From Gammaproteobacteria bacterium (GTDB taxonomy: Bacteria > Pseudomonadota > Gammaproteobacteria > JAURND01), in contig DASZWJ010000019.1 in assembly GCA_035546635.1 (NCBI GenBank), positions 229,386 through 293,385 of the forward strand: a stretch of 64,000 nucleotides of DNA, written 5' to 3'. Below the pieces are notes generated by a model that was given only the letters and a program-made list of their open reading frames with translations, was not told where the DNA came from and did not search any database. The position numbers were made by a program, and so were the translations under genes. This document shows positions 684 to 742 of the stretch, one piece after another (within the stretch, counting starts at the first letter, position 1; each line of letters begins with the position of its first letter).

Positions 684-742
684 TGGGGTTAATCACTGTA
701 ACCCCCTCTCCCCTTGTGGGAGAGGGGATATAGTGCTTTGCC
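684..742. repeat. GC-rich palindromic element, family A (core CCCCTCTCCCC-TTGTGGG-AGAGGGG flanked by inverted CACTGTAA/TATAGTG arms)
   Basis: Seen in the mfd–miaB spacer. Its arms resemble the copies at 7871..7928 and 7996..8089. Confidence 0.7.

Follow-up and report, generated by a model that had tools for sequence, protein, structure and literature searches.

Known classes of small hairpin repeats probably occupy the post-gene spacers of an uncultured gammaproteobacterium

CGTC-tagged REPs take in dRS3 of Neisseria and RPE-4 and RPE-6 of Rickettsia conorii (Di Nocera, De Gregorio & Rocco 2013, BMC Genomics 14:522; PMC3733652) and have been reported mainly from Alphaproteobacteria. Their stem criterion is 8-9 bp with A-T at the first and second positions and a loop of 4-5 nt; one end of the unit bears an unpaired CGTC (or TGTC or CCTC) tag, and the short unpaired tail is mostly CCA. 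The CGTC/dRS3 superfamily has been linked to Ssn, a 94-aa GIY-YIG single-strand nuclease, and high loads of NTS/SRM repeats were reported as over-represented among symbionts (Chenal et al. 2025, Nat Commun 16:2388; PMC11893778). In the REPIN/RAYT system (Bertels & Rainey 2011), a long hairpin arises from two REPs in inverted orientation, singlets are decay products, and inheritance is vertical with turnover inside the genome. The E. coli boxC or intrastrand triplex motif (TMECO) has the layout CCCTCNCCC - loop - GGGNGAGGG - loop - GGGTGAGGG (Holder et al. 2015, NAR 43:10126; PMC4666352). Rfam also contains the structured hairpins TwoAYGGAY (RF01731) and Ysr224 (RF02770); in the term counts available for the preprint 10.64898/2026.09.22.753630, AYGGAY appears 56 times and CsrA not at all.

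Here we compared these systems with the repeats in a stretch of 64,000 nucleotides (the window) from a deep-branching uncultured gammaproteobacterium with 42% GC. Several known classes of small non-coding hairpin repeats, namely tagged REPs, boxC/triplex-type elements, and TwoAYGGAY-like hairpins, very likely colonised its post-gene spacers. Since these classes are known from other bacteria, what is new is the host and not the kind of element. Three widespread, poorly understood repeat classes are thereby extended to a deep-branching, moderately AT-rich gammaproteobacterial lineage.

Repeats of the window and their positions

Short-word self-BLAST of the 64-kb window gave 14 significant HSPs, all at the elements listed in the initial annotation and representing the sole internal similarity. 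Together with a repeat search, it bore out the repeats at the coordinates claimed there. The A segments 687-726, 7880-7917, and 8014-8054 (inverted) were 90-93% identical; A copy 1 showed 93% identity to 8015-8054 and 91% to 7884-7916, and 14638-14702 had only the core in common with the other A copies. The two A2 copies (5309-5352 and 26127-26170) were 95% identical, and the two C copies (37501-37560 and 63479-63538) were 85% identical; the full B copies were recovered at 46934-47037 and 49814-49917. When the elements were folded as single-stranded DNA and compared with dinucleotide shuffles, z ranged from -3.4 to -12.4 in 11 of the 14; the fold was weaker in D1 (z -1.3) and in the A copies at 7871 (z -1.9) and 8000 (z -1.6).

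The claim that almost every spacer longer than 60 bp carries an element was overstated, with 14 of about 25 such spacers occupied, but it applies to nearly all spacers 3′ of genes. Only one of nine divergent spacers contained an element (C at 63452-63538), and this second C copy was the exception among the B, C, D, and F sites, 12 of 13 of which lay in unidirectional or convergent spacers near 3′ ends. The AT-rich surroundings described earlier are only mildly so (window, 42% GC; elements, 46-61% GC). By eye, a terminator-like T-run was found after F only and not after A, A2, B, C, D1, D2, or E. Examination of 11 elements turned up neither target-site duplications nor direct repeats at their flanks. 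Among the window ORFs, a search that included a motif scan found no transposase, integrase, RAYT, or GIY-YIG protein, and the statement that the window has no transposase, RAYT-like gene, or integrase holds. The only Rfam match in the window at the gathering threshold was a TPP riboswitch.

Table 1 Hairpin elements of the window (z, single-strand folding score against dinucleotide shuffles).
Element	Position	Strand	Features
A copy 1	684..742	+	Hairpin CCCCTCTCCCC-TTGT-GGGAGAGGGG with conserved 5′ flank TAAKCACTGTAAY; begins 9 nt 3′ of mfd stop codon; z -4.5
B, weak remnant	3615..3633	+	11-nt GCTGTCATCCT head only
A2 copy 1	5290..5371	.	A-type outer stem CTCTCCC/GGGAGAG, loop replaced by 32-nt block ATCCCRCAAGGGGATTCCCTTCGGTCAYAGAC; z -5.0
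A copy 2	7871..7928	+	15 nt past ftsK stop codon; z -1.9
A copy 3	7996..8089	-	8014-8054 inverted relative to copy 2; remnant of third G-rich segment GGGAGAGGGTTACGGAGGGGT; extra degenerate core at 8060-8089; 7 nt off rdgC stop codon
A-core hairpin	14635..14727	.	CCTTCTCCCCTTGTGGGAGAAGG within palindrome with 30-nt arms; overlaps rluC stop codon; z -7.5
A2 copy 2	26110..26187	.	Palindrome with 26-nt arms around the inner block of A2 copy 1; z -10.8
B singlet	29079..29116	+	Supplies last codons and stop codon of lpxK
B remnants	31607..31640	+	Two tandem GCTGTCATCC heads; likewise arranged ahead of a B copy in relative L083
E	31661..31775	+	Unique 32-bp outer stem; inner hairpin with loop CATGGATG; invariant block TACACGGACGTATTCACAGCGT
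D1	34874..35037	.	Head-to-head CGTC-GTCCCGC…GCGGGAT-CCAG / TGTC-GTCCCGCGG…CCGCGAGAT-CTAG, spacer of ~60 nt; between lapA and GNAT gene
D2	35428..35592	.	Long composite palindrome, dRS3-like centre ATTCCGCGA-CTTGA-TCGCGGGAT; rpsA/lapA spacer; z -10.5
C copy 1	37479..37562	.	Degraded head-to-head dimer of CGTC-(G)TCCCGGC…GCCGGGAT-CCAG units; encodes final ~9 residues and stop codon of cmk; z -3.4
F	44619..44703	.	Head-to-head dimer TGTC-ATTCCCACC-TA-GGTGGGAAT-CTAT / TGTC-ATTCCTGCG-TAG-GCGGGAAT-CTAT (dRS3/NTS-like); z -6.9
B full copy 1	46934..47037	.	Head-to-head dimer of TGTC-ATCCTGAGCG-loop-CGAAGGAT-CTCC units; hisD/hisC spacer, overlapping hisD stop codon and called hisC start codon; z -12.4
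B full copy 2	49814..49917	.	hisH/hisA spacer, overlapping hisH stop codon; z -9.3
B singlet remnant	55177..55205	-	Overlaps stop codons of two convergent ORFs
C copy 2	63452..63540	.	Sole element in a divergent spacer; z -6.7

Tagged REPs and boxC-type elements

To assign classes, the units were parsed one by one against NTS, CGTC ATTCCCGCG MAV GCGGGAAT CYRG. Judged from their sequences, B, C, D1, and F consist of REP units tagged CGTC or TGTC, present singly or as head-to-head dimers, and belong with dRS3/NTS of Neisseria and RPE-4/-6 of Rickettsia in one superfamily. For these four, the parallel with Rickettsia RPEs drawn in the initial annotation is literally right, since RPE-4 and RPE-6 are CGTC-tagged REPs (PMC3733652). 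As in the published elements, the window units have a CGTC or TGTC tag, a 7-10-bp stem whose 3′ side is closed by AT, a short loop, and a CCA(G) tail; most units form head-to-head dimers with spacers of 10-60 nt, and singlets also occur; the sites are unidirectional and convergent spacers, at most about 20 nt from stop codons, with the stop sometimes provided by the element; and one genome contains several families.

The tags lay at the outer ends in both full B copies, both C copies, D1, and F. TGTC was found in both units of F, the right units of both full B copies, the B singlet at 29079, and the right units of D1 and the second C copy, while the left unit of the first B copy was degraded to TTTC. 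CGTC was found in the left units of D1 and the second C copy, the right unit of the first C copy, and every C/D-type unit of the relatives L083, L085, and L088. The tail was CCAG in C, the left unit of D1, and all units of the relatives, CTAT or CTAG in F and the right unit of D1, and CTCC in B. The F stem ATTCCCACC/GGTGGGAAT has 9 bp and a loop of 2-4 nt and fits the stem rule of CGTC-tagged REPs, although this loop and the CTAT tail depart from the published elements. Other departures are the stems of C and D1 (GT…AT ends, 7-10 bp, loops of 2-8 nt), which open with a G·T pair, and that of B, which has AT…AT ends, two internal mismatches (tandem G·A), and the CTCC tail; the loop of B also differs from the published CGTC consensus.

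F, C, and D1 followed the NTS frame CGTC-AT-TCCCGCG…GCGGGA-AT-CYRG, and the motif GCGGGATCCAG pointed out earlier corresponds to the 3′ half of NTS plus its tail. A short GCGGGATC(C/T)(C)AG motif was present in C, D1, and D2 as claimed, but D1 and D2 share nothing else. Because D1 (34874-35037) and D2 (35428-35590) lack mutual similarity, they are two unrelated palindromes and the proposed family D is dissolved. D2 has no CGTC tag, and its centre gave 0 matches in IMG/VR. D1 was 80% identical to positions 21164-21241 of L083, a non-orthologous site. The second C copy gave a sub-threshold match of 36.6 bits to Rfam WsnRNA46, a Wolbachia REP-derived sRNA.

The list of B elements was incomplete, as the best half-copy (29079-29116) had been missed. 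Among the partial copies that had been proposed, 55177-55205 is a real half-copy, while the site at 3615 amounts to a single head and 31607-31640 to two heads. The exact B head occurred, both singly and in head-to-head dimers, in 52 IMG/VR stretches with a GC content of 41-70%.

One DNA strand of such a unit, comprising the unpaired CGTC/TGTC tag, a 7-10-bp stem starting with (A/G)T…AT, a short loop, and a tail of CCAG, CTAT, or CTCC, and present as a singlet or mostly as a head-to-head dimer folding as one long hairpin, would fold when single-stranded during replication, repair, or DNA uptake. The tag and stem would then be recognised by a trans-acting protein encoded by a single-copy gene elsewhere in the genome; both steps are taken from the literature on related elements. 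For the CGTC class, Ssn is the only partner demonstrated so far. When transcribed as mRNA 3′ ends, the hairpins probably also influence RNA stability.

Strict NTS CGTCATTCCCGCGMAVGCGGGAATCYRG and the degenerate SRM pattern matched no window element, and because the SRM motif matches none of them, the association with Ssn is an extrapolation. The single SRM regex match in the window (44786-44813; random expectation, 0.11) lay inside hisG, outside all elements, and is a chance site. A generic scan for GTC followed by a hairpin gave 20 matches against 11±3.6 expected and, like the strict SRM regex, was not discriminating. The window and about 100 kb from the relatives encoded no Ssn, RAYT, or other candidate enzyme, and a motif scan of the same sequence found no NTS-ssn-NTS locus or cd10448 GIY-YIG gene. 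A GIY-YIG motif scan of the 52 B-bearing IMG/VR loci found nothing, and clustering of the ORFs beside B motifs gave no recurrent neighbouring gene. The published Ssn-related motif does not cover the B-type unit GTCATCCTGAGCG…CGAAGGATCTC, for which a separate partner enzyme may exist.

By sequence, A and A2 carry the CCCTCTCCC…GGGAGAGGG core (CCYTCTCCC-loop-GGGAGARGG) of the boxC/triplex motif. The exact A core, which equals the TMECO/boxC core, was found in 113 IMG/VR stretches, and that of the hairpin at 14635..14727 was 100% identical to copies in L085 and L088; a literature string search for the core gave no matches. Like the window A elements, boxC/TMECO elements (PMC4666352) have the core CCCTCTCCC-loop-GGGAGAGGG, are always intergenic, at times form inverted tandem pairs, have no associated mobility genes, and are extremely conserved in sequence among distant taxa. 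In contrast to TMECO, however, the third GGGTGAGGG strand required for the triplex is missing in most window A copies: the first two segments were present in all, and the third was present only as a remnant, GGAGGGGT, at 8014-8030. The third segment was full in L085 (×2) and partial in L088. The lineage-specific 5′ flank TAAKCACTGTAAY of A and the 32-nt loop insert of A2 also set the window elements apart.

Turnover among relatives and alternative explanations

We compared the window with five relatives (L083, L085, L086, L088, and L089) that have the conserved order cmk-rpsA-lapA-corC-lnt and genes about 75-80% identical to those of the window. The same families occupied different spacers in these relatives. 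In the cmk|rpsA spacer, the window had C, L083 had an A-type hairpin, L088 had C at a different spot, and L085, L086, and L089 had no element. In the rpsA|lapA spacer, where the window has D2, L083 had a full B, and L085 and L089 had A-type hairpins. The corC|lnt spacer was 12 bp in the window and 269 bp, with a palindrome of about 150 nt, in L083. L083 was rich in B, L085 and L088 were rich in A, and L086 and L089 had almost none. These results show that the elements were gained, lost, or replaced over the time separating related species, and that they are tolerated almost only 3′ of coding regions, where they often provide the last codons and the stop. Presence and absence among species with genes about 75-80% identical suggests that the elements may be mobile. 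Because the expanded family differs among related genomes, the clade would be a good natural experiment in which to look for proteins responsible for spreading or policing these repeats. Host association of the lineage is probable, since the relatives encode TPR, Sel1, and WD40 proteins.

Compared with 1.46 Mb of unrelated gammaproteobacterial loci, the window and the relatives had a 10-20-fold higher density of diagnostic k-mers, and for B heads the density was about 11 per 100 kb (controls, 0.55 per 100 kb). The window elements had no matches in the 1.46 Mb of unrelated loci. An rpsA-based contig scan gave relatives of ≤65% identity among the matches listed, and 80 loci were reused as a negative control. 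That the elements are multi-copy across the genome has indirect support, and the independent Logan contigs L001 and L082 break off inside A, A2, E, and C elements. The repeats explain the fragmentation of short-read assemblies of this organism. They also explain the unconserved, element-encoded C-termini of cmk, lpxK, hisD, and hisH; those of Cmk and LpxK were element-encoded and unconserved in the relatives.

If the hairpins were ordinary intrinsic terminators or attenuators of the upstream genes, vertically inherited and alike merely as GC-rich stems, their location just past stop codons in unidirectional or convergent spacers would be expected, and F, the sole element that resembles an intrinsic terminator, is indeed followed by TTTTTT. 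This explanation is nevertheless very improbable and, as a general one, was refuted: copies were 85-95% identical over 40-60 nt, loops and flanks included; A, A2, B, C, D1, D2, and E lack T-runs; two B copies lie in the interior of the his operon; orthologous spacers of the relatives have other families or none; and unrelated organisms spanning 41-73% GC share identical heads. The differing spacers of the relatives and the copies inside the his operon agree with the original proposal of dispersed non-coding repeats of the REP/RPE kind rather than conserved terminators. Assembly artefacts of the MAG, by fold-back or chimeric joins, have practically no chance of accounting for the palindromes. 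The source is a MAG and relative L083 has very long perfect palindromes, but independent Logan assemblies of SRR12170514 agree at 100% identity with 10.4 kb of window sequence, in which D1, D2, and portions of the A, A2, C, and E elements are contained; the elements sit between intact syntenic genes; and hundreds of unrelated public contigs carry these motifs as well.

Classical MITEs, that is, internally deleted IS with terminal inverted repeats, a DDE transposase, and target-site duplications, would fit the sizes of 80-165 bp, the inverted ends of B and F (TGTCAT…ATGACA), and the absence of coding capacity. However, direct repeats flanked 0 of 11 elements examined, REP-like singlet half-elements were common (29079, 55177), the apparent terminal repeats are tag-plus-hairpin units laid out identically to dRS3/NTS, and no matching IS was found in the window or relatives. 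We consider this origin quite improbable, and the term MITE in its transposase-derived sense was abandoned for want of target-site duplications. REPINs moved by a RAYT encoded once elsewhere in the genome come closer, since inverted doublets and singlets forming long hairpins match the REPIN definition (PMC3337134), and GTAA, resembling the GTAG tag, stands directly 5′ of the stem in three A copies (in copy 3 it is base-paired, not free). On the other hand, B, C, D1, and F are tagged CGTC/TGTC and not GTAG, and neither a RAYT nor a Y1-transposase domain (PF01797) was found in the window or the sequence of the relatives, which makes REPINs of this kind unlikely. Under the preferred assignment to known repeat classes, the remark that the elements had not been described holds only narrowly, for an uncultured lineage without literature; the element types themselves were described between 1999 and 2025 (PMC3733652, PMC11893778, and PMC4666352).

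Element E

E had been taken as a private palindrome and as part of the same phenomenon as the other repeats. Instead, it is one copy of a separate, widespread structured-hairpin family with at least 120 metagenome matches and strong covariation. The family is of the same kind as the structured hairpins TwoAYGGAY and Ysr224, to which it is related below threshold. Cultured hosts of E-type elements include Marinobacter and Yersinia. Like TwoAYGGAY, E has a long, poorly conserved outer stem around two hairpins with AYGGAY loops, CAUGGAUG and A-N-GGAC. Family members scored 32-41.5 bits against Rfam TwoAYGGAY (gathering threshold, 43 bits), and the window copy was unreported even at E ≤ 10. Against Ysr224 (gathering threshold, 70 bits), the best member scored 40.1 bits and the window copy reached 25.2 bits on the minus strand; the annotated strand of Ysr224 is opposite to that of E. 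Unlike in TwoAYGGAY and Ysr224, the second hairpin of E lies in an invariant 22-nt block and always has a stem of 3+3 bp that carries a 5-nt bulge.

The outer stem in the family is 20-40 bp long, perfectly paired, and different in every copy, and the distribution is REP-like, in 3′-end spacers and either orientation. When the ORFs beside E-type elements were clustered, no recurrent neighbouring gene was found. Tentatively, E may represent a widespread hairpin family present in no catalogue, with the invariant 22-nt block TACANGGACGTATTCACRGCGT, two AYGGAY loops, and a REP-like spread. If so, it would be a distinct dispersed element, more than a variant of TwoAYGGAY; it could act as an RNA that titrates CsrA, or as a hairpin of single-stranded DNA that has a dedicated protein partner, and the unique stems might come from fold-back copying of flanking DNA. 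A literature string search for the E block returned 16S primer matches only. The reverse complement of the block, GTGAATACGTCC, resembles 16S rRNA near position 1375, which is probably a coincidence.

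Repeat inventory and genomic setting

A short-word self-BLAST of the window returned 14 significant HSPs, all of which (14/14) lay inside the elements described in the initial annotation, and repeat finding agreed, showing that these repeats are real (Table). The two full B copies listed there were also recovered, but a proposed family D was dissolved because D1 and D2 have no mutual similarity. When folded as ssDNA, 11 of the 14 elements gave z values of -3.4 to -12.4 relative to dinucleotide shuffles. The elements add up to ~1.4 kb; intergenic DNA totals ~5.3 kb, so they make up roughly one quarter of it. 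They occupy 14 of the ~25 spacers longer than 60 bp; these comprise nearly all spacers following a 3' end, whereas of nine divergent spacers just one is occupied. The statement that almost every spacer is occupied was therefore too strong, although it is fair for post-gene spacers. As had been noted, the window holds no mobilising gene; no ORF matched a transposase, integrase, Y1 transposase, or GIY-YIG nuclease.

Repeat elements and other features of the window, with repeat units written tag-first
Feature	Position	Strand	Unit	Remarks
A, close copies	687-726, 7880-7917, 8014-8054 (inverted)			90-93% identical
A, core-only copy	14638-14702
A2	5314-5345, 26132-26163 (inner block)		inner block TCCCGCAAGGGGATTCCCTTCGGTCAC	2 copies, 95% identical
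B	29079-29116, 55177-55205 (half-copies)		TGTC-ATCCTGAGCG-AAA/ATA-GCGAAGGAT-CTCC	also two full 100-nt palindromes and some 11-nt heads; 29079-29116 overlooked in the initial annotation
C			CGTC-TCCCGGC-AGGAG-GCCGGGA-TCCAG	2 copies, 85% identical
C (relatives L085, L088, L083)			CGTC-GTCCCGGCAT-GG-ATGCCGGGAT-CCAG
D1			CGTC-GTCCCGC…GCGGGAT-CCAG
E				one copy
F, left unit			TGTC-ATTCCCACC-TA-GGTGGGAAT-CTAT	one copy of F
F, right unit			TGTC-ATTCCTGCG-TAG-GCGGGAAT-CTAT
TPP riboswitch	14810-14916	+		74.2 bits, above gathering score; 5' of thiC, sharing its spacer with A copy 14635-14727
Paralogous ~520-aa ORF	3712-5280	+		followed by A2
Paralogous ~520-aa ORF	55198-56775	-		followed by a B singlet
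ORF, 522 aa	9240-10808			no Pfam/NCBIfam match
ORF, 142 aa	20375-20803			no Pfam/NCBIfam match
ORF, 484 aa	24630-26084			no Pfam/NCBIfam match

The window is part of a bacterial chromosome with 42% GC and carries housekeeping genes (mfd, miaB, phoH, ybeY, ftsK, rdgC, rne, rluC, trpS, msbA, lpxK, lnt, corC, lapA, rpsA, cmk, cinA, and mutS), thiC/O/G/DE with the TPP riboswitch, and the his operon hisGDCBHAFI. Among the matches listed, S1 was only ~65% identical to that of the closest cultured relatives, indicating an uncultured, deep-branching lineage. The rpsA loci of five relatives were taken with 10-kb flanks (S1 identity: L083, 93%; L085, 83%; L089, 83%; L086, 79%; L088, 78%), and all five retained the order cinA-cmk-rpsA-lapA-corC-lnt. 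Large TPR, WD40/beta-propeller, and Sel1 repeat proteins adjoin the cinA-cmk-rpsA block in L085 (388-8617) and L086 (7314-8453), which hints that the clade is host-associated. The two paralogous ORFs of the window, which are ~71% identical in nucleotide sequence along a short segment, each have a SAM-methyltransferase domain at the N terminus and also a region weakly resembling protein kinases, and the three ORFs lacking Pfam/NCBIfam matches may encode lineage-specific proteins.

Relationship to known repeat classes

Judged by their sequences, the B, C, D1, and F units appear to share the layout of CGTC-tagged REPs. In these, a CGTC tag, often changed to TGTC, is combined with an 8-9-bp stem that begins with AT, a short loop, and a tail reading CCA, and the class includes dRS3 of Neisseria and RPE-4/-6 of Rickettsia (PMC3733652, Di Nocera et al. 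2013). They mostly form head-to-head dimers in spacers of unidirectional or convergent ORFs, ~20 nt or less from 3' ends, and are occasionally intragenic (PMC3733652). The NTS repeat of Neisseria has the same layout (CGTC-ATTCCCGCG-MAV-GCGGGAAT-CYRG). In contrast to the published consensus, the stems of C and D1 in the window begin with a G·T pair, the B stem has two internal mismatches, and the B and F tails deviate; no element of the window matched the published degenerate Ssn-related motif. The shared GCGGGATC(C)AG motif pointed out in the initial annotation is present, but it is explained as the NTS 3' half plus tail. Against Rfam WsnRNA46, a Wolbachia sRNA with a consensus that is itself such a head-to-head dimer, C scored 36.6 bits, below threshold. 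The exact B head (GTCATCCTGAGC-N3-7-GAAGGATCTC) occurred in 52 IMG/VR stretches, whose GC content spans 41-70%, both as singlets and in head-to-head dimers of variable spacing, indicating that the B-type unit is very widespread. In one IMG/VR stretch (L114, 8593-8969), a dimer that joins a B-type unit to a related GTCATTCTGAGGGAG…GAAGAATCT unit is repeated five times in tandem with a period of 87 bp, forming a clustered REP array.

From its sequence, the A core appears to be the E. coli boxC or 'TMECO' intrastrand triplex motif (CCCTCTCCC-loop-GGGAGAGGG-loop-GGGTGAGGG), which is intergenic, extraordinarily conserved, and widespread, with no link to mobility genes (PMC4666352, Holder et al. 2015). 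Compared with TMECO, the third G-rich segment is gone from most window A copies, and a remnant is left only in 8014-8054. The core CCYTCTCCCCTTGTGGGAGARGG was 100% identical in the window, L085 (two copies), and L088 (two copies), even though gene identity among these genomes is only ~70-75%. The same 23-mer was found in 113 IMG/VR stretches, mostly with 60-73% GC, where a second GC hairpin and GGATGAGGGGT usually lie downstream and inverted pairs 100-150 bp apart are frequent. Three A copies of the window have a lineage-specific 5' flank in common. In A2, a 32-nt block takes the place of the loop on an A-type stem; this inner block had no Rfam match and was also found in two unrelated IMG/VR contigs with 56% GC (L378, 3023-3043; L379, 13276-13296), where it adjoins other small hairpins.

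The observation made in the initial annotation is thus confirmed and its interpretation largely right, especially the comparison with Rickettsia RPEs, since the layout of B, C, D1, and F is that of the class containing RPE-4/-6. However, the elements cannot be called undescribed given this layout and the boxC/TMECO core of A; what is new is an uncultured host for already known kinds of repeat. By analogy with related elements, one DNA strand would fold into a hairpin when single-stranded, and a trans-acting protein would recognise its tag and stem. [quoted passage not shown] 2025, Nat Commun 16:2388). Neither an Ssn nor a RAYT gene was found in the 64-kb window or in ~100 kb of relatives. The greatest novelty lies in the putative partner of the B-type units and in the E-type hairpin family.

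Turnover of the elements between related species

If the hairpins were conserved terminators, the same elements should occupy the same positions in relatives; this was the deciding test set out in the initial annotation. Instead, spacer contents differed, in favour of repeats. Coding regions of L083 aligned with the window at 72-81% identity, whereas spacers were unalignable. The rpsA-lapA spacer contains a full B dimer in L083 and D2 in the window, and beside msbA L083 has a D1-like element, as opposed to A2 in the window. In the cmk-rpsA spacer, the window has C, L083 has an A-type hairpin, and L088 has C at another position; this spacer is empty in L085, L086, and L089. The family carried also varied, with B in L083, A in L085 and L088, and almost none in L086 and L089. 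Additionally, two B copies lie within the his operon (hisD-hisC and hisH-hisA), and a T-run follows only F. The terminator reading was rejected as a general explanation on these grounds. An origin as transposase-derived MITEs is argued against by the absence of flanking direct repeats at any element examined. These results show that the elements are multi-copy hairpins that turn over between related species, stay clear of promoters and of the interior of coding regions, and become fused to the ends of genes.

By BLAST, the window elements had seven matches across ~100 kb from relatives, whereas 1.46 Mb of unrelated gammaproteobacterial rpsA loci gave no match, and the diagnostic k-mer density of the window and relatives was 10-20 times that of these control loci. 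Two independent SRR12170514 short-read contigs, 100% identical to the window, terminate within A, A2, E, and C, an expected effect of multi-copy repeats on assembly. At the ends of cmk and lpxK, C and B units encode the final residues and the stop codon, and these ends are unconserved in relatives. hisC was called from an ATG at 47029 inside the right terminus of a B element (…CAGGATGACA); either its true start lies downstream or the B element provides the start codon. Four relatives have 0-51 bp between corC and lnt, and the window has 12 bp; in L083, this spacer measures 269 bp and is filled by an almost perfect ~150-nt palindrome (~13915-14065; 75-bp arms, 3-nt loop). Perfect palindromes of this size are normally unstable.

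The E-type hairpin family

E is not a private palindrome of the window, as its inner block was also found in L085, one Ectothiorhodospiraceae MAG control locus, two IMG/VR contigs, and at least 120 metagenome stretches (36-72% GC among the matches listed). The layout is common to all copies: a nearly perfect outer stem of ~20-40 bp, different in every copy, encloses an inner hairpin, whose stem varies and whose loop reads CA(T/G)GGA(T/C)G, followed by the invariant block TACANGGACGTATTCAC(A/G)GCGT, after which the outer stem closes. The outer stems of 74 distinct copies contained 1696 Watson-Crick, 56 G·T, and 14 A·C pairs; this excess of G·T over A·C suggests that the block-carrying strand is the one that folds. 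Among the 31 pairs of an alignment of 59 sequences, 24 changed on both sides, with 459 double-sided changes versus 133±10 in shuffles (0/500 reached 459) and 0.615 versus 0.09-0.21 in slid controls. Because copies were chosen for having an outer stem, the independent evidence is the inner hairpin, in which 9 of 11 pairs covaried.

With a covariance model, the family was also detected in Marinobacter and other Gammaproteobacteria, but not a second time in the window. The family scored 32-41.5 bits against TwoAYGGAY on the same strand (threshold 43) and up to 40 bits against Ysr224 on the opposite strand (threshold 70), both below threshold, and the window copy had no TwoAYGGAY match at all in the Rfam search. 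AYGGAY can be read in both E loops. TwoAYGGAY RNAs have been proposed to bind CsrA (Gardner & Eldai 2015) and were rated probable RNA, not cis-regulatory (Weinberg et al. 2010). E-type copies lie in convergent (14), unidirectional (12 in each orientation), and divergent (1) spacers, a REP-like distribution without orientation preference. Opposite-orientation pairs 100-250 nt apart, each member with its own unique outer stem, were observed in L306 (7320-7602), L334 (2655-2904), and L046 (14471-14729). The reverse complement of the block (window 31728-31748, minus strand) contains GTGAATACGTCC, a string that the literature otherwise has only as part of primers for 16S rRNA; this is probably a coincidence.
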